Shown one piece after another: positions 47,887-63,676 of a stretch of DNA of 64,000 nt. A program made the translations under genes and the position numbers. This DNA is from an uncultured bacterium. GTDB lineage: Bacteria > Krumholzibacteriota > Krumholzibacteriia > LZORAL124-64-63. Position 1 is the stretch's first letter. Every line of letters starts with the position of its first letter. Where the stretch lies: positions 128,001-192,000 of the forward strand of contig CAVSZB010000008.1 in NCBI GenBank assembly GCA_963732385.1, read 5' to 3'. The notes under the pieces were generated by a model that saw nothing but the letters and a program-made list of their open reading frames with translations, did not search any database and had not been told where the DNA came from.

Positions 47887-48858
47887 TTGAGCCTGGAACT
47901 CGTGCTCGGCGCGGATACTGGCGGCACGGCGGTCAAGTTCGCCGTTTGTGACACGGATGGCGCGGTCGTGGCGTCCGGCGAGACGGCCACGAACGCGCAC
48001 GATTCGCGCGAGACCCTGTCCCGTCTGGCCGCCTCCGCCCTCGCGGCGCTGCCGGACGGCGGCCGGCTCGCGGCGGTCGGCGTGGCGTGCGCCGGCATCG
48101 TGGGCCCGCGCGACGGACACCTCGGGCGCTCCCCCAACCTGCCCGGCTGGCAGAACCGGGATCTGGCCGCCGACGTGCGCGCTGTCTTCGGCGATCTGCC
48201 GGCGGCCTTCGTCAATGACGTCAACGCTGCCGTCTACGGCGAGTGGCGCCAGGGCGCCGGCCGGGGATTCCGGCACCTGGTCATGATCGCGCTGGGCACC
48301 GGCGTGGGGGGCGGAGTGATCTGCAATGGTCGTCTGCTCACCGGCGCGCGCGATGCCGCCGGGGAGATCGGCCACATGGTGCTCGATCCCGCAGGACCCC
48401 TGTGCAACTGTGGCAATCGCGGGTGTCTCGAAGCCTACGCCGGCGCGGCCGGATTGGGGCGGCGCGCCGCCGAACTGGCGGCGGCGCCCGGCGTGGCCGG
48501 TCCGGCGTTTCGGGCGGCGGTGGGTGACGGGACCGGGCGCGCGGAGCTGGCCGACCTGCACGCGCTGGCCGCGGCGGGCGACGCCACCGCGCGCGAACTG
48601 TTCGCCTGGGCGGGGCGCGCCCTGGGGCAGGCGGTAGCCAATTGCGTCAACGTGCTCGACCCCGATGCCGTGATCATCGGCGGTGGCGTGGCGCGGGCCG
48701 GGAGCTTCATCCTGGGTCCGTGCGCCGAGACCGCGCGCCGTCTGATCATGGCGGAAGCGAGCCGCGAGGTGCCGCTGCTGCCCGCCGCGCTCGGCACGCT
48801 CGCCGCCGCGCGCGGCGCCGCCGCCCTGGCGGCCGACCGGGGCGGGGACAGTCCGTGA
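47887..48858 (+). CDS. ROK-family sugar kinase (glucokinase-like)
   Basis: DTGGT, NDVNAA, LGTGVGGG, GEIGHM, CNCGNRGCLE. Confidence 0.93.
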   Translation: MSLELVLGADTGGTAVKFAVCDTDGAVVASGETATNAHDSRETLSRLAASALAALPDGGRLAAVGVACAGIVGPRDGHLGRSPNLPGWQNRDLAADVRAVFGDLPAAFVNDVNAAVYGEWRQGAGRGFRHLVMIALGTGVGGGVICNGRLLTGARDAAGEIGHMVLDPAGPLCNCGNRGCLEAYAGAAGLGRRAAELAAAPGVAGPAFRAAVGDGTGRAELADLHALAAAGDATARELFAWAGRALGQAVANCVNVLDPDAVIIGGGVARAGSFILGPCAETARRLIMAEASREVPLLPAALGTLAAARGAAALAADRGGDSP

Positions 48859-51800
48859 TCCGGACGCCCGGTCAGCGCTCCATCGGGCCGCTGCTGGCGC
48901 TCTCCCTGAGCGTGCTGCTTTGTGCTTTTCCTCCCGAGCGGGGGCCGGCGCAGGAGCTCCCGCCGGTCCCGACGGCTGACAGTGCGGCCGTGGATTCGAC
49001 CGGACGCGGCGGAGGGGGCGCCCCGACCCTGCCCGGATTCACCCGCATCCGGTCCCGGGGACCACTTGTCTACCGGGTGCAGGACGGCGAGCCGGTCACG
49101 ATCCTGACCGACAGTGTCCTGGTCGAACGTGACAGCCTGGCCGTTTCCGCCGATTCCGCGTTCTGCTACCGAGCGCTCGAGGTCTACGACTTCCGTGGCA
49201 ACGTGATAGTGGTGAGCGGCGACATGGTGCTCCACTCCCGGCGCTCCGTGCTGCGCCGTCTCGAGGATGCCGCCGACAGCGAGGGCGAGGTCCGGATCGA
49301 GGAGAAGGGGGTCGTCGGCACCGCCACCCGAGGCGAATCGCGCGCGGGGGGTGCGCTGACGCGTCTGATCGGCGAGGCCCGTCTCGTGTCGCCGGAGTAC
49401 ACCGTCTGGGCCGATACGATCGTCCAGTACCGCGACGACGACCGCGGCGAGGCGTTCGGCAACGTGCGGTTGCTCGATCCCGCCTCCCGGACCTTCGTTA
49501 CGGGCGGGCGCGCCGTGTTCCGCCGGCACGAGGGGACCGCGGTGGTGGACCGCGGCCCGTCGCTTACCACGCGCGAGCGCGGCGAAGGCTCCCTCGCGGG
49601 GACCTCCCGCCTGATGCGCTTCCAGCGCGAACCGGACCGCATCGTCATGATCGACTCCGTACGGATCAGGCAGGGGCGTCAGCAGGCTCTCGCCGACACC
49701 GCCGTCGTGCTGGGGCGCGAACGGGTGCTGCTGCGCGGCAACCCGACGCTGCACGACGGCGAGCGCACGACGATGAGCGGTCGCGAGATCGAACTGCTCT
49801 ACCGCGACGAGGCGCTCGATCGTGCCCTGCTGCGCGGCGCGGCGCGGATCGAGGACACCCAGCCCGACAGCCTGGCCCGGCTCTTTCCGGGGCTGCCCGC
49901 GGCGAATGTTCTCGAGGGGGACACCATCACCGTGGAGATCAGCGCGGAGGAGATCCGGCGCACGACGGTCCTCGGTTCGGCGCACAGCCTGTACGTGCCC
50001 GAGGACGTCGCCGACGAGATCGCGTCGAACGATGTCAAGGGTGACACCATTGTGATCGACTTCCGGCGCGGCAGGGTGGACGTCGTCCAGGTGAGCGGCA
50101 GCATGTCCGGGATCTACAGCTTCGTGCGGCGCGAGAATCTCGTTGCGGCGCCAGTTGATTCCGCGGCGGTCGACTCGACGGCGACGACCAGCAGGGTTTC
50201 GACCGCTCCAACCGTTCCGGCCGGTCCGGTCGCGGGGAGCGCCGCCGCCGCTGACACGAACGGCACCCCGGTGGTCGTCCCGCCTGGCGGGGCCGATTTC
50301 GCCCGGCGGCGCGAGACCGTCGTCTACTCGGGGCATGCCGCGGTCTTCCGTCTGGGCGAACGCTCCATCGACGTCACGCGCGACGCCAGTCTCGACTACG
50401 GCACCCTGAAGCTCGACGCGCGGCACGTCCGCTTCGACACCGTGCGGCGGGAGCTGTACGCCGACGGGGACCCGCTGCTGGAGGATGACGCCCAGAAGAT
50501 CGCCGGCGATCAGATGGGCTACAACTTCGGCGTGCGCTCCGGCGCGGTGCGTGACGGCGTCACGACCTACGATGGCAGTTACTACACCGGCCGGGAGATC
50601 AGGCGTTTCGCCGACGGCACGCTCAAGATCCGCTCCGGCCGGATGACCTCGTGCAACCTGGCGCGGCCGCACTACCACTTCTGGGCCGACAAGATGAAGA
50701 TCCGGATGGGCGACAAGGTGGTGGCGTCGCCGATCGTAATGAAGATCGGCGAGGTGCCGGTCTTCGCGCTGCCGGTGTACTTCAAGTCCCTCAGGAGCGG
50801 CCGCCGCTCGGGGATCCTTTTTCCCAATTTCGGTTTCGGCTGGACCTCCCGTGAGGGACGCTTCGTCCGCGACTGGGGCTACTACTGGGCGACCAACGAC
50901 TATCTCGACTTCACCCTGCGCGGCGATTACAACGAGAAGCGCAACCTGGCCATGCGGCTGACGAATCGCTACGTCAAACGCTATACCTATACCGGAGGGT
51001 TCGACTGGTCGCGCAGCAACGGACTCGGCAGCGGCGTCCGAGTTGATGAGTGGCAGTTGCGCTGGAATCACAATCAGGAGTCACTCTTCGATGTCTACAC
51101 CCTGCGCGGAGACGTCCAGCTGGCCAGCCGCACCCTCACGCGCAACGACCTCACCAGCGACGTGAATCGTGACGTGATCAGTGGGCAACTGCACTCCACG
51201 GTTTTCGTCAGTCGCAACTGGCAGAACGCAAGCGGCTCGCTCAACCTGACGCGCGACCAGCAGGTCAACGCCGCCGACGACAATCCGGCGACCGACAACG
51301 TTCTCGCCACGGCCACCCTGCCTCAGATGAACGTCAGCTTCCGCCGTCGCTCCGTCCTGGCGCCGCTGCCGGCCGGAAGCCGGGGATCGTTGGCGGGCGA
51401 TCTGCTGCGCGCCGCCTACTTCAGCCACTCCTACTCCGCGAGCCGGCAGGCCACGTCGCGGGAGCTGACGGATCAGCAGGTCACCTCCGCGAAGGGCAAT
51501 CTGGCCGTCGAATGGCGTCCGCCGCGACTCGGCTTCCTCAACCTGAACTCCGGCGTGACCGCTTCGCAGTCCTGGCAGCGCAACGCGCGGGAAGGCCGCG
51601 CTTTCGCCGGCTGGGACACGCTGCTCGTCGCCCCCGACAGTTCCGTCATCAGCGAGACCTACCGCGACGTCAGGGAAATCGTCGAAAACACGCTGCCGTC
51701 TCTCGGCATCAACACATCGGCCAACACCACCTTCTACGGCCTGTTCCCGGTCCGGCTCGGCGCGCTGCAGGCGATCCGGCACACGCTGGCGCTGTCGGCC

Positions 51801-52778
51801 AGCCACGGTTTCCGGCCGGCGCTGGGCGACAAGCAGACGCGCAGCTCCGTGTTCAGCTTCTCCATGGACAACCGCTTCGATGTGAAGCTGCGCGGCGATG
51901 CCGATACGCAGGCGCGGGTCGAGGCGGGTGGGTCGCATGATTCCCGTTCGGCGGTGGCGGGCGGGGGGGGGAGTCCCGGTCGCGACAAGGGCACGGGGCG
52001 CAAGCTCGATGGCGTGCTCGACTGGCGCCTGTCGGCGAGTTATGACCCGAACGCCAGGTCGGGTCGCGGCTGGTCGTCGTTGAGCAGCGGCATTCTGATC
52101 AAGCCCGGGCAGAGTCGTAACCTCAATTTCCGGCTCGACAACAGCATCGATCCGTACCGGTGGCGCATCACCTCCACCCGCGTCACGTACGGGTTGAACC
52201 TCTCCGGGCGGCTTGATAACGGCGCCCAGGCCGGGCCCGCGCCGGAACGGGTCAACGCGGGCATCGACCGGCTTGGCGCGTCGGCCGACACTGCCGCCGC
52301 GTCGGGCGCCGAGCGTCTGCCCGATTCGCGGCCTGACGACTCCTGGTCGGACGAATTCGCCGGGTTCCCCAGGCCGGGCGGAGAAGGCGCCGGCAAGGAT
52401 CCCACGGAAGGGGGACGCTACGTCCCCTGGAGTCTGAGCACCTCCATCTCCTACAGCAGCACCGCGAGCGCTTATAGTTCGAGCCTCAGCAACAGTTCGG
52501 CGCGCGCGAACGTTTCGCTTTCCGCCAGCCCGACGCGTGGCTGGGATCTGACCTGGTCCGCCTCGTACGATGTCAGGCAGGGGGTGACGCTGCAGAACTG
52601 GGGGCTTGTCCGCGATCTGCACTGCTGGTCCCTGGAATTTTCGCGCATGATCAGTCAGTTCGACACGCAGTTTGGCTTCCGGATCTTCCTGAAATCGATT
52701 CCAGCCATCGAACTGCGACAGGGGGTGGGAGATCTCCAGCGGGCGGCCGGCGTCCTGGGGGGGGGCATGATCCCGTGA
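48855..52778 (+). CDS. lptD: Large LPS-assembly protein: N-terminal OstA/LptA-like repeats fused to an LptD-like protein (1307 aa)
   Basis: Signal peptide; repeated ADS/AFGNV/LRGNP jellyroll-like segments; low-complexity linker; TSC...PHY, RRSGILFP, GYYWA, RDLHCW LptD-like motifs. Confidence 0.82.
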   Translation: MIRTPGQRSIGPLLALSLSVLLCAFPPERGPAQELPPVPTADSAAVDSTGRGGGGAPTLPGFTRIRSRGPLVYRVQDGEPVTILTDSVLVERDSLAVSADSAFCYRALEVYDFRGNVIVVSGDMVLHSRRSVLRRLEDAADSEGEVRIEEKGVVGTATRGESRAGGALTRLIGEARLVSPEYTVWADTIVQYRDDDRGEAFGNVRLLDPASRTFVTGGRAVFRRHEGTAVVDRGPSLTTRERGEGSLAGTSRLMRFQREPDRIVMIDSVRIRQGRQQALADTAVVLGRERVLLRGNPTLHDGERTTMSGREIELLYRDEALDRALLRGAARIEDTQPDSLARLFPGLPAANVLEGDTITVEISAEEIRRTTVLGSAHSLYVPEDVADEIASNDVKGDTIVIDFRRGRVDVVQVSGSMSGIYSFVRRENLVAAPVDSAAVDSTATTSRVSTAPTVPAGPVAGSAAAADTNGTPVVVPPGGADFARRRETVVYSGHAAVFRLGERSIDVTRDASLDYGTLKLDARHVRFDTVRRELYADGDPLLEDDAQKIAGDQMGYNFGVRSGAVRDGVTTYDGSYYTGREIRRFADGTLKIRSGRMTSCNLARPHYHFWADKMKIRMGDKVVASPIVMKIGEVPVFALPVYFKSLRSGRRSGILFPNFGFGWTSREGRFVRDWGYYWATNDYLDFTLRGDYNEKRNLAMRLTNRYVKRYTYTGGFDWSRSNGLGSGVRVDEWQLRWNHNQESLFDVYTLRGDVQLASRTLTRNDLTSDVNRDVISGQLHSTVFVSRNWQNASGSLNLTRDQQVNAADDNPATDNVLATATLPQMNVSFRRRSVLAPLPAGSRGSLAGDLLRAAYFSHSYSASRQATSRELTDQQVTSAKGNLAVEWRPPRLGFLNLNSGVTASQSWQRNAREGRAFAGWDTLLVAPDSSVISETYRDVREIVENTLPSLGINTSANTTFYGLFPVRLGALQAIRHTLALSASHGFRPALGDKQTRSSVFSFSMDNRFDVKLRGDADTQARVEAGGSHDSRSAVAGGGGSPGRDKGTGRKLDGVLDWRLSASYDPNARSGRGWSSLSSGILIKPGQSRNLNFRLDNSIDPYRWRITSTRVTYGLNLSGRLDNGAQAGPAPERVNAGIDRLGASADTAAASGAERLPDSRPDDSWSDEFAGFPRPGGEGAGKDPTEGGRYVPWSLSTSISYSSTASAYSSSLSNSSARANVSLSASPTRGWDLTWSASYDVRQGVTLQNWGLVRDLHCWSLEFSRMISQFDTQFGFRIFLKSIPAIELRQGVGDLQRAAGVLGGGMIP

Positions 52779-52796: not shown

Positions 52797-52825
52797 TTGC
52801 TCGCCGGCCGGCGTGCTCTTATAAT
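52797..52825 (+). promoter_or_regulatory. Putative sigma-70 promoter for the selenoprotein gene
   Basis: TTGCTC-N17-TATAAT. Confidence 0.6.
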
Positions 52826-52959
52826 CCCCTCCGTGGGAACTCTGACCTCCCGCGTGCGGTTGAAGCGCGTCGGCGGTCGTTTCCCCGCCGGCGCCGATCG
52901 CCGGGCTGGCTTGCATTGAAGGGATGTTCATCGTGAGCGACGGCGTGAAGGGGTGTGCG

Positions 52960-54321
52960 ATGGACCGGCCCGGGGGCCTGCCTGTGACGCACCTTGCCCT
53001 CGTCCTGCTGGCATTGATCAGTCTTCTCGCGGCTTTCGCCAGCGTCCCCGCGGCCCTGTCGGCTGCGCAGGGAACGCTCGAGCCGATCGTGATTCTCTAT
53101 CACAGCGATGTTGGGGGAAAAGTCGAGCCGTGTGGCTGACACAGCAGCCAGCGTGGCGGGTTGGCCCGGAGGGCCACCCTTCTTGACACCGTTCTGAATG
53201 AGGGCGCCCCGGTGTTGCTGGTCGATGCGGGCGGGCTGTTCGGTACGCGCAACAAGCTGGAGCGCGACCAGACCCGCTTCGTGTGCGAGGTCACGGCCGG
53301 TTTTGGCTACGACGCCATCGGCCTCGGACAGGCCGACCTCAACTACGGCCTCGGTTTTCTGCGCGAGATGATAGAGAAGAACCGGCTGCCTTTCACCAAT
53401 GCGAATGTGCGGGACAAGGCGACGGGCCAGCTTCTGCTGCCGCCCTGGCTGGTCGTGCAGAAGGGTGGCGTCAGGTTCGGCATCGTGTCGGTGCTCGACC
53501 CCGTCGAGCCGTTCATCACCATGACGGCGCAGGACGAGGCCTATCAGGTCGATGATCCTGTGGCGACTCTGCGCACGGTCATTCCGGAGCTGCGCAAGCA
53601 GGCGCAGACGATCGTCCTGCTGAGCCACCTCGATCTGCCCCGCACCGAGAGCCTGCTCAAGGAATTGGCCGGTGTGGACATCGCGGTGGTGGGGCATACG
53701 CACCAGGCCGTGCCGATGCAGCGGATCGTCGGCAAGTCGGTCCTGCTGGCCGCCGGCTTCGAGGGGCGCACCATCGGCCGGCTCAGCGGTCAGTTCGACC
53801 AGGACGGCGTCATGCAGAACTTCCAGGTCAAGCTGATCGAACTCGACGAAAAGATCGCCGACGACGGGGTCATCCTCGAGAAAGTGACCCAGTTCAAGCA
53901 GAAGCTGGAAGAGACCCGCCAGTCCCTGCGCGGACGTCATCAGCAGGTCAAGGGCTCGGCGACGGAGCAGTTCCTGACCCAGAACGAATGCCGCAAGTGC
54001 CATGCCGATATCTATGCGAAGCTGGAGGGGTCGCGCCACAACGCGGCGCTCGCTTCGCTGGCCAGGAAGGGGATGTCGCAGGAGCCCGACTGTCTTGCCT
54101 GCCACACGACCGGCTACGAGTACAAGGGGGGCTACGATGAGAAGCCGCCCGCCAATCGCCTGCTGAACGTGCAGTGCGAAGCTTGTCACGGCTACGGGTC
54201 GCTGCACCGGCGCGACGGTCGCTGGAAAGCCGAGGCGCGCAGTACCTGCGTGGCCTGCCACGATCAGACGAACAGCCCGAAATTCGACTTTGCGACGTAC
54301 TGGGAAAAGATCAGGCACTGA
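52960..54321 (+). CDS. Exported selenoprotein: UshA/5'-nucleotidase-like domain (C-G-U) fused to a tetraheme cytochrome c (about 453 aa; UGA at 53137-53139 read as Sec)
   Basis: Track ORFs 52924-53139 and 53161-54321 share a frame and read YHSDVGGKVEPCG-U-HSSQRGGLARRAT; SECIS-like hairpin downstream; heme motifs CRKCH, CLACH, CEACH, CVACH; start 52960 or 52984. Confidence 0.87.
53158..53179 (+). promoter_or_regulatory. Putative bacterial SECIS element
   Basis: GGG-T(bulge)-TGGCCC-GGA-GGGCCA-CCC hairpin; G-starting apical loop begins 28 nt after the in-frame TGA. Confidence 0.7.
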
Positions 54322-55132
54322 CGCGACGCCGGCCGCTGCCGGTCGGCGCAGCCCCGCGCGGGCGGCCCTGGCGGCCGCCTGCGCTTTTTGGCTCGCCGGC
54401 AGCGCGCCCGCGGCCGCGCTCGACCTCTTTACCCTCTGGCGCCAGCCGGAATTGCCACTGAGTCTCGTGCCGGGGGCATGGGCGGACTATCGTTCTTCCA
54501 CGCTCGAGGGGGGACAGCAGGCGACCGCCGCTGTTCGCATCCAATGCGTGGGCCGCGCGGCCGACGGCGCCTGGGAGATCGAATTGCTGCCTCTGCTCGA
54601 TCGCGCCGTGGGGCGCGTCCCCGAAGCGGGAGAGGGATGGCTGCTGCTGCTCTCCGATCGCGTGGCGCGTCGCGAGGGCGATCTGGCCGATCTGGTCCGC
54701 AAGGTTGTGCACTGGCAGGGCGGGCGGGCGACCGAACTCGCCCCGGCGCAGTGGCGCGAGGATCCGCTTGTCTCTTCGTCGTTGCGGGCCGCCTTCCGTC
54801 CGCAGACCACGCGATCCGCGGGCGAAAGCGTGCGGGTCGTGGGGGGGCGGGACCTGCTCTGCCGCCAGTACGATCTGGCCGCCGCCGAAACAACCCGCGT
54901 GATGCTGCCCCGGGGCACGCTCGTGCAGACGACCCGCCGCGAGATTTCGGCGGCGGTCCATCCCGAGGTGCCGTTCCTCGGGCTGGCGTTCGCCACGGAA
55001 CGAATCACGACCGAATCCCAGGTCGAGCCCCCCCGCGCCGGCCGGCGCGATCCGCCGCCGGCGGTCCGGTTCGAACTGATGGAACTGGTCGCCTTCGGCA
55101 GCGATGCGCGTCGGACGCTGGGGGCGCATTGA
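54290..55132 (+). CDS. Hypothetical exported protein; start uncertain
   Basis: Signal-like RRSPARAALAAACAFWLAGSAPAAA followed by a beta-rich body; fills the gap between neighbouring genes. Confidence 0.65.
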   Translation: MRRTGKRSGTDATPAAAGRRSPARAALAAACAFWLAGSAPAAALDLFTLWRQPELPLSLVPGAWADYRSSTLEGGQQATAAVRIQCVGRAADGAWEIELLPLLDRAVGRVPEAGEGWLLLLSDRVARREGDLADLVRKVVHWQGGRATELAPAQWREDPLVSSSLRAAFRPQTTRSAGESVRVVGGRDLLCRQYDLAAAETTRVMLPRGTLVQTTRREISAAVHPEVPFLGLAFATERITTESQVEPPRAGRRDPPPAVRFELMELVAFGSDARRTLGAH

Positions 55133-56362: not shown

Positions 56363-56875
56363 ATGTCCCCCGAGACGCTGATGATCGAACAGTATTGTTC
56401 CGTGTGCAAAGCGGTCCTCGAGATGTCGGTCGTGCAGACGTCTGATGGCGAGGAGGACGGTGTGCTATGGCTGCGCTGCCCGCGCTGCCACGGTTTCCTG
56501 CCGAAGATCAGCGACAATGTCGACCAGCCACACGGCTCCGCCGAATCGCCGCCCGAGATCGGGGAGACACCCGCAGAGCTGCCCGAGCCGATCTTCGGGG
56601 AAGCGATGCCCGCTCCCGACCTGCCGAAGAAGCCGGAGGTCGCCGGGGAAGACCTGTCGCCACCGCCGATGCCCGATTTCGATCCGGAGACGGCGATACC
56701 GTACCGGCCCTGGAACAGCTTCGATGTTGGCGCGGTGATTCGCCACCTCGCCTGGGACGATTATGGGATCGTTATGGCGAAGGAGATCCTGCCCGGCAAT
56801 CGTCACGCCGTGAAGGTGCAGTTCGAAAAGGCTGGCGTGGTCCGTCTCATCGAAGACAGCGGCGATCGGCCGTGA
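56363..56875 (+). CDS. Hypothetical protein: Zn ribbon, Pro/Glu-rich linker, SH3/Tudor-like C-terminus
   Basis: YCSVC...RCPRCH; C-terminal F.VG.VIRH..W..GIV...V.F..GVVRL; start 56363 or 56381. Confidence 0.72.
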   Translation: MSPETLMIEQYCSVCKAVLEMSVVQTSDGEEDGVLWLRCPRCHGFLPKISDNVDQPHGSAESPPEIGETPAELPEPIFGEAMPAPDLPKKPEVAGEDLSPPPMPDFDPETAIPYRPWNSFDVGAVIRHLAWDDYGIVMAKEILPGNRHAVKVQFEKAGVVRLIEDSGDRP

Positions 56876-57765
56876 TCTGCCGGCCGGACGGTGGCCGGAG
56901 GCGGTTCTTGCCCGCCCTCTGCCTGTTCTCAGTCATCCTTGGTGCCGCGGCGATCAGCAGAGCGCAACTGCCTCCGCGCGAACCTCTGCCCTGGGATATT
57001 CTCGCTCCGCCCTCCGGACGGCAGGCCCTGGTGCTGGATGCCGCGCGATTCACCGACCCGCATGTCGGTTGGCGCGCGCAGCGGCTGGGGTTCACCGCGT
57101 TCTGGCCACGTGGTCCCGCCGGGTGCCTCTTCCTGCGCACGGCCTGGTACGCTCTCGACACCGGCGAGGCTTCCGTTACGACGCGCTGGCCGCATCTGGC
57201 AGTTCCCGGCGATGGGACCGCGCCGGGCGGCGACACGGCAGTCGGCTGGGGCAGCCCGGAGGTGGGCTGGCTCTCCTCACTGCGGTTGGACAGCCACGGC
57301 GCCTGGCAGTACGCCTTCGCCGCGGCGCTGCCTCTCGGTCGGGACGAGCTATATCCGTTCGCCTCCACCAGCCTGCCCTTCCGCTTCCAACTGCGCAGGA
57401 CGGTGCGTCTGGGCGGGCGGCTGGAGGCCGGCGCACTCGCCGGACTGGTGTTCGTGCTCGATTCGGGGCGCGACCGGCTGCTGCCGGCGGCTTACCCGGG
57501 TGGGACGTCTGCCGCGCTGGATCTGGTCTGGCGCCAGTCGCAACGGCACGCGCTGACGATCACTCTTGCCGCGGAGTCGGGCGGTGGGGCGCTGGTCCTC
57601 CAGCCGTCGCTCGCCTGGCGTATACCGGCGGGAGGGTGGCGGGAATTGACCCTCGGCCTGCGGCGGGATCTCGCCGCCGCCGCCGACCGCTCCTACACCA
57701 CACAGGCGTGGCTCTCCTGGACGATTCGCCCGGCTCCGGCCGCTCCCCCCGCCGTCGCAAAATGA
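56872..57765 (+). CDS. Hypothetical exported, beta-rich protein
   Basis: GTGA overlap with the upstream stop; signal peptide RRRFLPALCLFSVILGAAAISRA; alternating beta-strand pattern. Confidence 0.6.
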   Translation: MICRPDGGRRRFLPALCLFSVILGAAAISRAQLPPREPLPWDILAPPSGRQALVLDAARFTDPHVGWRAQRLGFTAFWPRGPAGCLFLRTAWYALDTGEASVTTRWPHLAVPGDGTAPGGDTAVGWGSPEVGWLSSLRLDSHGAWQYAFAAALPLGRDELYPFASTSLPFRFQLRRTVRLGGRLEAGALAGLVFVLDSGRDRLLPAAYPGGTSAALDLVWRQSQRHALTITLAAESGGGALVLQPSLAWRIPAGGWRELTLGLRRDLAAAADRSYTTQAWLSWTIRPAPAAPPAVAK

Positions 57766-59194: not shown

Positions 59195-62100
59195 GTGGCC
59201 CAGCCTTTCGAGGGTCGCTTCCGACTTGCCGACCGTCTGGCCGACTGCGGGCGTCTGCCGCGCTATTGTGTCACCGGTGTGACGCTGGCGGAGCCGGCCG
59301 AGGCGATCGCCCTGAGCGAAACGGGTCGCTGGGCCGGTCTGTTGGAGACCGTCTGGCTGCGCGTCGCGCGCCTGGACGCACATCCCGCGGCGGCCTGTGT
59401 CCCGTTCGCGGCCGAGCAGGCCGGCGATACCCTGCTGCTGATCCATCCGGTCCTGCCTCCCGACGCCTGGGAGGACCACGCGCGTGGCCTGCCGGCGGAC
59501 ATCCTCCTTACCGGGATCGCCACGCTGGTGCGCTGGTTGCTCGCGGGGCTGGCCACCCAGGTCGGCTGCGGGAACCTGCGTCTTTCCGCGCTGCGCTCGT
59601 CATCTGACGGACCGCTCGCCTCGCCGGCGGCTTGGGCTGTGCCGCTGCCGCTGCTCGCGGTTCGCGGGCTGCCGGGGCGTCCGTGGCGGGGGCTGGTGGC
59701 CCGGGGATGGAGCGGCGAGGCGGTCCTCGACGCGGGACTGCTCTGCCATGACCTCGCCGGGCTGCTCGGGGAGCGACTCGCCGAGGGACTCCCGGACGGA
59801 TCCCTGCGGGATGGGCCCACGGACCGATCCGTCCTGACGCGAGTGCGCGACGGGCTGGTCGCCTGCTCCGTCGAGGCGCGTGTCGGCGGAGAGGTCGGTC
59901 CGCTGGGCTCCGGACTGGCGGATCTGCTGGCGCTCGTCACCGGAGCGGACGCTCCGTCCCGCGTGCTGCGGAGCGCGCGGGCACCGGTGCGCGATAGCCT
60001 GACCGCTGCTCTGGCCGCGCTTGGCCGGAGGGAAGACGGGGCCTGCCTGTTCCTCGAAGGGGGAGTGGAGGAGGGGGTTGTCGACAGGATCGCCACGGCG
60101 CTCTCCGCCACCGCGGAATTGACCGTGGCCAGGGGATTGGTTTCCGAACAACCGGCGCCATGTCCACCGCGCGCGGGGCGACAAGGAGCCGAGGCGTGGC
60201 TGGTCGTATGCGACGACCAGGCCCAGCCGCCGACGGCGGCCCGACGCTGGCTCGCCGGGGTGCCCGCCGGTCGCCGGCGCCGCGTGCTCTGGCTGGGGAC
60301 GGGGGAGGGGGCGCCGGCCGGCCATCTGCTGCGTCGCGACCTGACCGCTCGTTGGCGGCTGGCCCGGCTGGACGAACCGCTGTCCGGGGAGGCGAAGCCG
60401 TCGTCTCCGGAGTCTGCGGTGGCGCCTGGCCTGGCGCCGCTGATGGAACCGGGGGAGCGGGTGCTGCTCGGGATGGTCGCCGCGGCCGGCATCGATCTGC
60501 CGCTGCCGCTGTTGGGGCGCGCCTCCGGTCTGCAATCGCGCGAACTGGGCGTTGCGCTCGCGCCGCTGGTGGCGCGCGGCCAGCTGGTCTGGCGCGCGGT
60601 GCGGGCGAAATGGATGCGCGCGGAGAAGACCTGCACCGTGGCGGTCACGCCGGCCGGACTGGCCAGGGCCGCCGCGGACCTCGTTGATGTCGAACATCAT
60701 CGCGGTTGTCTGGCGCTTCTCCTGCATCATCTGCCGCCCGGCCGTGGCGCTGATGATCGCTGGCTGCGTTTTCATCTGCTGGCAGCGGCCGGGAATTCCG
60801 CTGGTGCGGCACGGGAGTTGGCGGCCCTTCTCGCGATCCCGTCCGGTGCGCAGGACGATCATGCCACGGTGGCGGCCTGCGCCGCCGCGCTCGCCCCTGA
60901 GTTCCCCTGCCGGCTCGACCCGGTCCTGTTGATTCGCGCCTGCGGGCGGCTGGGGCGCGCCTGGGAGGAGCGCGGTCAACTCGGCGAGGCCCGCGCTGTC
61001 TACGAGCGGGGGCTGTCGCTCGCGACGGGGCTGGTCGACGGCCACACTGGTGAGGAAGAGGCCGAGGCGCTGGCGGAACTGGCGATCGCGTATGCCGACC
61101 TGCTGGACAAGCGGGGCGAGTTCACGGTCCTGAACGATCTGCTGCGGCGCGTGGTCGACGGCTGCGGCGGCAGCCTGCGGCCGCCGCTGGCGGCCCGGCT
61201 GCAGTTCGAAATCGCCTGGTCTCACCACCGGATGGGACGGCACGAGGTCGCGCTGGAGATTTGCCAGGCGTTGTTGCGCCAACTCGACATCGAAGAACGT
61301 TCGGCCGAGGCGGGGGACGTCCACAATCTGATCGGGCTTGTGCGCTATGAGAGCAGTCGCTACGAGGAAGCACGCATCAGTATCCAGAAGGGCCTCGTTC
61401 TGCGCGAACGCGCGGGTGACCCGGCCGCGGTGGCGCGCAGCTGCAACAATCTCGGCCTCGTGCATCGGGCGCTGGGCGATCTGGCCCGCGCAGAAGCCTG
61501 CCTGCAACGCAGTCTGGCCATCAAGAACACGGCAGGGGATCTGCCCGGCGTGGCGAGTTGTTTCCTTAACATGGCGTACATCGCACTCGACCAGGAGCGG
61601 TTCGAGTCGGCGCTCGAACGGGGTCGACAGGCGCTGGATATCAGCCGCGAGCAGGTGCTGCGGCAACTCGAGGCGGAAATCCTGCTCCTGCTGGGGGAGG
61701 TGGCGGAGGCACAGGGCCGGTTCGCCGAGGCCACCGGGGAGTATGCCGGCGCGCGCGTAATCGCCGAGGAGATAGGCGACGCCGATCAGTGCCTGGCGAT
61801 CCTGCGCCACCAGGCGGGGCTCGCTCTGCGCGAAGGTGAGGCGACGCAGGCCTGGTCGACCTTCCGGGAAGCGGAGGCGCTCGCGCCGCGTGTGCCGTCG
61901 CAATTGCAGCGCGCGCTGTTGCGCCAGCTGGCGGGTGATCTGCACACTGCCGCCCACCGGCACGTGGAGGCTGCGACGGCCTACCAGGAGTGCGCCCACG
62001 CGCTCGTCGCGCTCCATAAGACAGAACTGCAGATCGGGGCGAAAACGCGCGCAGCCCTCGCCCTGGCCCGCGCCGGAGATCTGCAGCGCGCGCGGGACCT

Positions 62101-63676
62101 GTTCGGGGAATTGCGGCGAGGCACGCTGGACATGCGGCTTTCGGCCCTGCCTTCCGAGTTTCACGAGCTGGAAAAGCTGCTCGGCCAGACCGGCGGCGAG
62201 GATTCGGGGGCTACAGCGCATGCGGTCCTGCTGCGCGGCCTGCTCAACCTGCCCGCCCTGGAGGCGCAACGGCCCGGCTTTCCAGCCTGCGCGCGCCGCG
62301 TCGTCGAGCTCCTGCACGTCGCCGGTTCCTTCGCTGCCGTCGGGTTTGTGCATCTGGCGCCGACCGGGGAGGAACTCGGTCGCTGGGAGCAGGGGGATCC
62401 GTCCGGGGCGGAGGGCCTCACGTTCGTGGCGCGCGATGTCTGGCCGGACGGCGCGGAGATCGTGGGCACGGGGGTCCTGGCCGAAAATCCGGAGCGGCCC
62501 GGCCGGCGTGGGGCGATCAGTTCGGAAGAGGCTCGGGGGGCGTTGACTCTGGCGACTGTGGTTCTGGCCGCCTGCCGGGCCCGGATCGAGGAGGGGCGGC
62601 GACAGAGCGCCTCGCCCGTCTCCCCGGCGCCGGTCTTGCAGGCTGCCGCCTCCCTTCCGGGGGTGGCGTTTGTCGGCACGAGCGAGGCGCTGGCCGACCT
62701 GCGCCGGTTCGTCGACAAGGTGGCGAATCTCGATGTGCCCGTGCTTATCCTCGGCGAAAACGGCGCGGGCAAGGAGTTGGTCGCGCGGCTGATCCATTCG
62801 CGTGGCGCCCGCCAACGCCACGGCTTCGTCGCGGTAAATTGCGCCAGCATTCCCGCCACCCTGCTCGAGAGCACGTTGTTCGGGCACGAACGGGGCGCTT
62901 TTACCGACGCCGTGGCACGGCGGATCGGCGAATTCGAGCAGGCAGGCTCAGGCACGATCCTCCTCGATGAGATCGGCGAAATGCCGGCCCCGCTCCAGAC
63001 GAAACTGTTGCGTGTCCTGCAGGAGAAGGAATTCCGCCGCGTCGGTGGCAGCGAGACGCTGCGCCTGCGTGCCCGCGTGCTGGCAGCCACGAATCTCGAC
63101 ATCGGGACCGCGGTGGCAGACGGCCGTTTTCGCGAGGATCTCTACTACCGCCTGGCGGTGTTGCCGGTGCGGGTGCCTCCGCTGCGCGAACGGCCGGAGG
63201 ACATTCCGCCTCTTTTGCGCCATTTTCTCGAGATCTATGCCGCGGAATTTGGCGTCCCGGTCTGCGAAATCAGCGCCGAGGCGCTCGATGTGCTCGTGTC
63301 CGCCCCCTGGCGGGGCAATGTCCGGGAACTGCAGAATCTTGTCCGGCGGTTGCTCATCTTCGCCGAGGGGCGTCCCATCCGTCGCGGCGACCTGCCGGTC
63401 TCCCTGCAGCCGTCGGGCGCTGAGCCGCCGGGTGTTGGCGAGGATCTGGCGGAGATCGTGGCGCGGCTGGTCCGGGTACGCAACCTGGGCGTGGCCAGCC
63501 CGTTGCTGCCGAGACTGCAGGGCATGCTGGCCCGGCAAATGGTGGCGTGTTGCGCCAGCAAGGCGGAAGCTGCGCGACGCCTCGGTATCACCGCGCCGAC
63601 GCTCTACGAATGGCTGCGTAGGGAGGGCGCGCCGGAGGCGGGGCGTCCGCGCCGGCAGCAGAGGGCGGAAGGTTGA
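59195..63676 (+). CDS. Giant sigma-54 enhancer-binding protein (degenerate N-terminal/STAND-like region, TPR array, AAA+, Fis-type HTH), 1493 aa
   Basis: GENGAGKE, VNCASIP, LFGHERGAFTDA, LLDEIGE, FREDLYYRL, WRGNVRELQN, KAEAARRLGITAPTLY; TPR_12-like repeats (SCNNLGLVHRALGD). Confidence 0.9.
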   Translation: MAQPFEGRFRLADRLADCGRLPRYCVTGVTLAEPAEAIALSETGRWAGLLETVWLRVARLDAHPAAACVPFAAEQAGDTLLLIHPVLPPDAWEDHARGLPADILLTGIATLVRWLLAGLATQVGCGNLRLSALRSSSDGPLASPAAWAVPLPLLAVRGLPGRPWRGLVARGWSGEAVLDAGLLCHDLAGLLGERLAEGLPDGSLRDGPTDRSVLTRVRDGLVACSVEARVGGEVGPLGSGLADLLALVTGADAPSRVLRSARAPVRDSLTAALAALGRREDGACLFLEGGVEEGVVDRIATALSATAELTVARGLVSEQPAPCPPRAGRQGAEAWLVVCDDQAQPPTAARRWLAGVPAGRRRRVLWLGTGEGAPAGHLLRRDLTARWRLARLDEPLSGEAKPSSPESAVAPGLAPLMEPGERVLLGMVAAAGIDLPLPLLGRASGLQSRELGVALAPLVARGQLVWRAVRAKWMRAEKTCTVAVTPAGLARAAADLVDVEHHRGCLALLLHHLPPGRGADDRWLRFHLLAAAGNSAGAARELAALLAIPSGAQDDHATVAACAAALAPEFPCRLDPVLLIRACGRLGRAWEERGQLGEARAVYERGLSLATGLVDGHTGEEEAEALAELAIAYADLLDKRGEFTVLNDLLRRVVDGCGGSLRPPLAARLQFEIAWSHHRMGRHEVALEICQALLRQLDIEERSAEAGDVHNLIGLVRYESSRYEEARISIQKGLVLRERAGDPAAVARSCNNLGLVHRALGDLARAEACLQRSLAIKNTAGDLPGVASCFLNMAYIALDQERFESALERGRQALDISREQVLRQLEAEILLLLGEVAEAQGRFAEATGEYAGARVIAEEIGDADQCLAILRHQAGLALREGEATQAWSTFREAEALAPRVPSQLQRALLRQLAGDLHTAAHRHVEAATAYQECAHALVALHKTELQIGAKTRAALALARAGDLQRARDLFGELRRGTLDMRLSALPSEFHELEKLLGQTGGEDSGATAHAVLLRGLLNLPALEAQRPGFPACARRVVELLHVAGSFAAVGFVHLAPTGEELGRWEQGDPSGAEGLTFVARDVWPDGAEIVGTGVLAENPERPGRRGAISSEEARGALTLATVVLAACRARIEEGRRQSASPVSPAPVLQAAASLPGVAFVGTSEALADLRRFVDKVANLDVPVLILGENGAGKELVARLIHSRGARQRHGFVAVNCASIPATLLESTLFGHERGAFTDAVARRIGEFEQAGSGTILLDEIGEMPAPLQTKLLRVLQEKEFRRVGGSETLRLRARVLAATNLDIGTAVADGRFREDLYYRLAVLPVRVPPLRERPEDIPPLLRHFLEIYAAEFGVPVCEISAEALDVLVSAPWRGNVRELQNLVRRLLIFAEGRPIRRGDLPVSLQPSGAEPPGVGEDLAEIVARLVRVRNLGVASPLLPRLQGMLARQMVACCASKAEAARRLGITAPTLYEWLRREGAPEAGRPRRQQRAEG

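Follow-up and report, generated by a model that had tools for sequence, protein, structure and literature searches.

A UshA-like, very probably selenocysteine-encoding gene of Krumholzibacteriota in which a nucleotidase-like domain is followed by a c554-like tetraheme cytochrome

The gene and its surroundings

The window, that is, the whole stretch of 64,000 nucleotides analysed here, comes from an uncultured bacterium of the phylum Krumholzibacteriota, whose genome is assembled to 3.82 Mb in 9 contigs and is 95.8% complete. Translation of 52960-54321 on the forward strand yields 453 residues with a single internal stop, TGA at 53137-53139, which places the candidate selenocysteine (Sec) at residue 60; the read-through protein has the stop context ILYHSDVGGKVEPCG*HSSQRGGLARRAT. 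This agrees with an earlier note, made from the sequence alone, which had described two open reading frames sharing one frame and parted by that lone TGA. Beyond the TGA, the read-through protein contains LLVDAGG, GLGQAD, LLSH and GHTH, followed by four CxxCH motifs at C344, C378, C406 and C430. An in-frame ATG at 52924 is a second possible start. The features of the locus are listed below.

48855..52778, forward strand: lptD (PF19838), the upstream neighbour, not part of the protein
52797..52825, forward strand: sigma-70-like promoter candidate, TTGCTC-17 nt-TATAAT, read from the sequence
52960..54321, forward strand: the whole gene, 453 aa, an NF041198 UshA-like (seleno)protein (translation, profile match, AlphaFold2 model)
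52960..53067, forward strand: predicted signal peptide or N-terminal anchor, residues 1-36 (hydrophobic stretch by eye, also in relatives)
53071..53922, forward strand: metallophosphoesterase fold of the 5'-nucleotidase/SoxB type, lacking the catalytic His and with an eroded metal-2 site (G92, Q124, H223, H246; VIA-align, column counts)
53131..53139, forward strand: C58-G59-U60 motif with the TGA at 53137-53139 (translation, relatives, distant homologs)
53158..53179, forward strand: bacterial SECIS-type hairpin with a GGA apical loop at 53168-53170 (fold, contrast of TGA and Cys genes, rules of PMC13188914)
53866..53928, forward strand: long linker helix joining the two domains (helix at model residues 266-286)
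53953..54318, forward strand: cytochrome c554-like tetraheme domain, CxxCH at 53989, 54091 (heme 2), 54175 and 54247 (PF13435; 1bvb, E 4e-9)
54356..54389, forward strand: terminator-like hairpin and T run just 3' of the gene (terminator search)

The signal-like hydrophobic stretch, judged by eye, comprises residues 12-36 and is missing from the open reading frame 53161-54321 taken by itself. The earlier claim of one polypeptide exported by read-through is supported by this N-terminus, with the same by-eye judgement, and by relatives. Standard gene callers do split the gene, as had been foreseen: the CxC region is missing from 117 of the 120 closest database proteins. Two database homologs at about 51% identity bear the name Candidatus Krumholzibacteria or Krumholzibacteriia, and several database copies of the family are named as nucleotidases; copies cut at the UGA and nucleotidase names together keep the family hidden. 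A search of sequencing runs returned relatives and no reads of this strain (best word share 0.12), and the RNA-library contigs that cover the gene demonstrate neither expression nor this strain. A 91%-identical relative (L010:6001-7363) keeps the TGA and carries frameshifts elsewhere in the gene, which are probably assembly errors.

Upstream, lptD precedes the gene in 18/18 main-ortholog loci examined in the phylum and in 0/25 loci outside it; because of this, and because the gene appears to have its own promoter, the link to lptD may be inherited synteny. A -10-like hexamer, mostly behind TTGCnn, lies upstream in 20/44 TGA-type loci versus 1/44 in-gene control windows; a consensus promoter scan did not list the candidate at 52797..52825, whose -35 element has 3/6 matches. 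The terminator-like site is weak evidence alone, with 3 such sites in the region against 2.2 expected. Within LptD itself (window 48855-52778 and orthologs), a T-S/T-C cysteine occurs in 18/18 loci and an LHCW cysteine in 16/18, and these cysteines likely form a disulfide pair.

Downstream, the forward-strand open reading frame 54290-55132 has no Pfam or NCBIfam match and is kept behind the gene in 9 loci; its start is uncertain because the terminator-like hairpin overlaps its 5' part. Two further forward-strand frames, 56363-56875 and 56872-57765, likewise have no Pfam or NCBIfam match, the first carrying two CxxC pairs in a zinc-ribbon-like arrangement, and 59195-63676 (forward strand) encodes a sigma-54 activator of 1493 aa that has TPR repeats and, N-terminally, a long region without assignment.

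Selenocysteine and family membership

The earlier note had proposed a search for selA, selB, selD and tRNA-Sec, and all four are present in the genome: SelA (372 bits), SelB (317) and SelD (340) score above their respective cut-offs, the SelD gene carries a TGA of its own, and a tRNA-Sec with anticodon tca is found. SelA occurs in 200/208 genomes of the phylum. An alignment of homologs at the TGA column, also proposed there, gives a pattern of TGA and Cys. Specifically, PCG-TGA together with four CxxCH motifs occurs in 30/30 relative loci (the 29 best plus L009, with the window's own locus also in the set), which is beyond chance; the TGA-bearing relatives are about 49-87% identical. By hand count, 132 of the 150 phylum matches listed carry one TGA; a further 124 matches fall outside that list. 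In 102 distant database proteins (at least 405 aa and at least three CxxCH, selected from 149 matches), the Sec column holds Cys in 94, a gap in 6, Thr in 1 and Ala in 1, with neither Trp nor Arg in any of them.

Additionally, the hairpin at 53158-53179, whose GGA loop lies about 28-29 nt past the UGA, satisfies the bacterial SECIS consensus given in the accessible part of PMC13188914 (a loop of 3-9 nt with G first, 16-37 nt past the UGA). Its 5-bp core is kept in 30/35 distinct TGA genes versus 1/18 Cys genes. CGG serves as the loop codon in 31/35 TGA genes, as compared with 234/914 Arg codons elsewhere; these genes are related and therefore not independent, duplicates were removed, and the search pattern missed some loci. 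The folding energy of the hairpin is unremarkable (z -1.64; 12/200 shuffles equally stable). This ordinary energy, together with the missing reads of the strain, is what could be held in favour of a true stop or a sequencing error, in which case the gene would be split or a pseudogene. Such a reading is hardly credible against the same TGA in all 30 relatives, Cys in that column elsewhere, the complete Sec machinery of the genome, and a codon constraint on the hairpin that is confined to TGA genes. Read-through at the UGA is supported by the sel machinery, the alternation of Cys and TGA and the conservation of the hairpin in TGA genes, and the in-frame UGA very likely encodes selenocysteine.

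Internal stops were flagged in Planctomycetota matches as well; in the 15 loci checked none was internal and all genes are Cys-type, and this candidate was dropped. Three other Planctomycetota loci do carry a TGA copy. In these (L106:6467-9316, L108:7205-10067 and L115:7129-10061), tandem paralogs, TGA-type then Cys-type and with four CxxCH each, stand behind an ECF sigma factor gene, and the TGA copies are without the hairpin core seen in the window's phylum. A genome-wide scan for more Sec genes was dominated by chance matches and is left out of the counts. Outside the window, upstream of 312915-313820 on the reverse strand of contig C8 of this genome (G000), a thioredoxin-like FFTDW-TGA-SYC (UxxC) marks what is probably another selenoprotein gene that gene callers have split.

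The read-through protein passes the curated cut-off of the NCBIfam family NF041198 (UshA_like_PCGU) with 283.8 bits against 275; the score is marginal, as relatives fall on both sides of the cut-off (one close relative at 276, others at 250-263), and the split frame 53161-54321 alone reaches 228.9 bits. The PCG-U/C motif of the family is present near the N-terminus as EPCG-TGA. Protein and family share the PCGU motif, the nucleotidase-like domain and the C-terminal multiheme domain; they differ in length, the model having 519 positions against 453 aa here, and roughly profile positions 270-347 are without a match. The match bears out the earlier statement that UshA-like proteins with CxU are a described bacterial selenoprotein family, which is listed as COG0737 UshA-like, CxU, in PMC2398784 and also in PMC9312934 and PMC13188914. 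In the accessible parts of these three papers the family appears with just its name and motif, and hemes or a mechanism are absent. A second UshA-like family, NF049981, matches at 37.6 bits, under its cut-off of 140, and has the motif CxxU rather than the CxU found here.

The fusion to a heme domain that the earlier note had singled out is present in the read-through protein, yet it is no new feature, because NF041198 profile positions 348-518 already align with the heme domain (117 bits). The gene is very likely a genuine selenoprotein gene that belongs to a catalogued family, and its architecture is not new. The literature search (most subscription papers lying outside its reach) returned no paper joining selenocysteine, a multiheme cytochrome and a nucleotidase, none joining c554, a nucleotidase and multiheme proteins, none devoted to this protein by its title or the opening of its abstract, and no tested function for the UshA-like CxU family; the word 'cytochrome' is absent from the accessible part of PMC10454023. 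A metagenome scan with the family alignment gave no usable pattern.

The gene is matched in 201/208 genomes of the phylum and in 124/125 of good quality. Look-alike clusters occur in Planctomycetota, Verrucomicrobiota, Acidobacteriota, Bdellovibrionota, Myxococcota and Nitrospinota, and family members are present in Singulisphaera and Paludisphaera, both aerobes. Cys-type members in cultured Planctomycetes make the family testable without selenium machinery.

The nucleotidase-like and cytochrome domains

Modelled by AlphaFold2 with Cys in place of U, residues 38-453 give a mean pLDDT of 95.1 and a pTM of 0.90. In this model, residues 38-321 superpose by VIA-align on 3ivd (Z 35.0), UshA 1ush (33.7) and SoxB 2wdc (32.6). 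The motif erosion described in the earlier note (DxH to DVG, GD to GG, GNHE to GQAD) matches the alignment to the 5'-nucleotidase 2z1a, and neither the catalytic His column nor the metal-1 His column is conserved across the family. The claim that the protein is not a nucleotidase is accordingly favoured by these columns, which point to a loss of catalysis. The erosion of metal ligands, on the other hand, stands for this copy but is not family-wide: the metal-2 set (D, E or D, H, H) is intact in 97/120 close homologs, 16/21 TGA loci and 36/81 Cys homologs, and down to at most one ligand in 35/81 Cys homologs. Judging from the alignments, full loss of the metal ligands appears to be special to the window copy and some branches. 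The metal-2 columns are kept or lost as a unit, which indicates one optional metal site beside a constant CxC/U and hemes; CxC is found in 92/102 distant homologs, whereas metal ligands vary.

These columns bear on a reading in which the site has been rebuilt and the protein is either a hydrolase that depends on a metal or a protein that binds one: D92/E124/H223/H246 would hold one metal, the CxU would add ligands or redox gating, and the hemes would serve as sensor or wire. The frequency of the intact set argues for it, as does the coevolution signal, in which the four metal-2 columns make up five of the ten strongest pairs (Neff 125). This reading is nevertheless improbable: the Cys homologs with at most one ligand retain CxC and hemes, the window copy itself has G92 and Q124, and the catalytic His column is unconserved.

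At the C-terminal end of the fold, 5_nucleotid_C (PF02872) has no match and the PF13435 cytochrome takes its place. The C-terminal domain of nucleotidases closes over the metal face; with an equivalent closure, the cytochrome would approach the loop carrying the CGU motif. Residues 332-453 superpose by VIA on residues 1-180 of c554 1bvb (Z 10.8, rmsd 2.6, 120 aligned, 30% identity), and a Foldseek search with the cytochrome domain returned nothing at E <= 0.001, the top match being 1ft6, also c554, at E 3.6e-3. MccSep is missing from the structure-search lists for this domain, and there may yet be a likeness to it.

Three His residues outside the motifs are conserved among 103 aligned sequences, His360 in 103, His416 in 97 and His453 in 94, and no fourth conserved extra His is found in that alignment. 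His360 aligns with c554 His27. Because three conserved extra His stand against four hemes, and by analogy with the heme ligation of c554 carried onto His360/His416/His453 and heme 2, heme 2 (C378-H382) is likely an open site without a His distal ligand. In the same genome, WWD-motif proteins that we take to be of the CcmC, CcmF and CcsA kinds could serve heme attachment. By home-made gene calls, the genome encodes 27 proteins with at least two CxxCH, one of which has 42 motifs in 1041 aa; the reverse-strand gene at 21185-24310 of contig C7 (G000) is listed among these multi-CxxCH proteins. Between the two domains, coevolution analysis gave no convincing pair in a shallow alignment (Neff 125).

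Proposed function and comparison with known systems

The reading that we favour, at somewhat less than even confidence, is an exported thiol-disulfide oxidoreductase that is wired through its hemes and has proteins of the envelope as partners. In this scheme, the UGA read as Sec would give one exported polypeptide of nucleotidase-type fold and tetraheme cytochrome, and the nucleotidase fold would be a scaffold holding the C58/U60 loop on heme 2. One of C58/U60 would lie at or near the heme 2 iron, with Sec as the nucleophile, as in MccSep, and His360, His416 and His453 would complete three bis-His wire hemes, as in c554. The partners may be CxC/CxxC envelope domains (DUF1573, DsbA-like), and thiol oxidation would be the likelier direction, the electrons then passing via the hemes to periplasmic cytochromes; these two steps are the least secure.

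The evidence for Sec, the heme-attachment proteins, the conservation of CxC, the presence in 124/125 good genomes, the near-absence of DsbB (0/61 good genomes of the phylum) and VKOR (1/61), and links to DUF1573 and DsbA-like domains all favour a thiol-disulfide function. In particular, a DUF1573-type gene lies upstream in 11/25 loci outside the phylum, every one with CxC and one of them Pfam-confirmed, and in a set of 12 homologs chosen for their length, 6 are fused to DUF1573 and 3 to a DsbA-like domain, which in one of these three has CPHC. DUF1573 too appears among the UGC selenoprotein families in the accessible part of PMC13188914. In three proteins of about 1200 aa (P0122, P0126 and P0128), the family module forms the C-terminal part and the middle is thioredoxin-like (CPYG, CPHC or CIHC); near the N-terminus, P0126 and P0128 carry another CxC and P0122 a second UshA-like domain.

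Against a thiol-disulfide function stand the metal-2 set kept in most close homologs, needless for pure thiol exchange, the 0/25 lptD count outside the phylum, the single DUF1573 match of this genome, which lies on another contig, the inter-domain coevolution result, cytochrome-less paralogs, and two tests of a disulfide role. In this genome, with a crude exported set and home-made gene and signal calls, exported proteins show no even-Cys bias (87 even/128 odd, 0.405, vs cytoplasmic 288/380, 0.431; p = 0.53). Nor is VKOR excluded in Planctomycetota, where it occurs in 16/43 genomes with the full-length protein versus 12/58 without (p = 0.08, the wrong direction for exclusion; 101 genomes, the 43 hand-picked by match range, 8 N-domain-only matches dropped). 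With both tests negative, a role as bulk substitute for DsbB or VKOR is not supported; the protein may instead act on particular partners. The cytochrome-less paralogs (L081:6617-7573, L082:6761-7699 and L083:6834-7790) have a signal-like N-terminus and CxC (CHC, CDC and CGC), end before the cytochrome, and have no multiheme gene within their 14-kb loci, so the CxC motif can persist without fused hemes.

The same Sec/Cys-on-heme chemistry could instead act on a small sulfur or selenium species such as polysulfide, thiosulfate, persulfide or selenite, like MccSep, TsdA or SoxAX, with Arg70/Arg71 and the retained metal site binding the anion. R70 and R71 are found in 79/103 and 75/103 aligned sequences, SoxB is the best NCBIfam match after NF041198 (77 bits), and 6-7 loci of the phylum have genes resembling cystathionine beta-synthase/gamma-lyase in the vicinity of the family gene. 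MccSep, by the accessible part of PMC13510729, acts on polysulfide, which it reduces at a heme 2 of His/Cys ligation next to a Sec, with an Arg for the anion, and no MccSep scores above cut-off in this genome, which leaves that role vacant. We nevertheless consider a small-molecule substrate unlikely, though by no means negligible: 46 loci yielded no conserved neighbours with a role in sulfur respiration, and the observed fusions are to protein thiol domains. The gene is, moreover, near-universal in the phylum and present in the aerobes Singulisphaera and Paludisphaera.

The proposed thiol-disulfide oxidoreductase can be extended to a broader and more doubtful claim, namely a second, independently built selenium-heme enzyme class. 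Here, a dead nucleotidase fold would set the CxU pair on an open c554-type heme, linking envelope dithiols directly to cytochromes as a soluble, quinone-free source or sink of disulfides, encoded by a core gene of a phylum almost without DsbB and VKOR.

Compared with UshA/CD73 5'-nucleotidases and SoxB, the protein shares the N-terminal fold and linker helix (Z 32-35) but lacks the catalytic His and the metal-1 His, has a cytochrome in place of the C-terminal substrate domain, and scores far under the cut-offs of their profiles. With Nitrosomonas cytochrome c554 (1bvb/1ft6; PF13435) it has heme-motif spacing and fold in common, yet it covers the same span with about 60 fewer residues, is fused to a CxU domain, and reaches 39 bits with the CycA profile against a cut-off of 400. 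What the analysis adds is the c554-like heme domain with three extra His, the optional metal site, the near-universality in the phylum and the thiol-redox links.

The closest working model is the polysulfide reductase MccSep/ExtKL (NF040886), which, as far as the accessible part of PMC13510729 goes, is likewise a c-type multiheme protein of the periplasm that contains Sec. Its active site combines a heme 2 with a Cys ligand and a Sec supplied by another domain, and this Sec attacks the S-S substrate beside the His/Cys heme. Unlike the window protein, which has four CxxCH and an N-terminal Sec and scores 10.7 bits with NF040886 (cut-off 250), MccSep has five hemes, carries its Sec in an Ig-like domain at the C-terminus, far in sequence from the Cys, and has no nucleotidase fold; it is a mechanistic analogue from another family. 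Should the CxU indeed lie on heme 2, the protein would follow MccSep as the second catalytic design that pairs Sec with heme, and it would be a candidate for how some bacteria handle envelope thiols without DsbB or VKOR.
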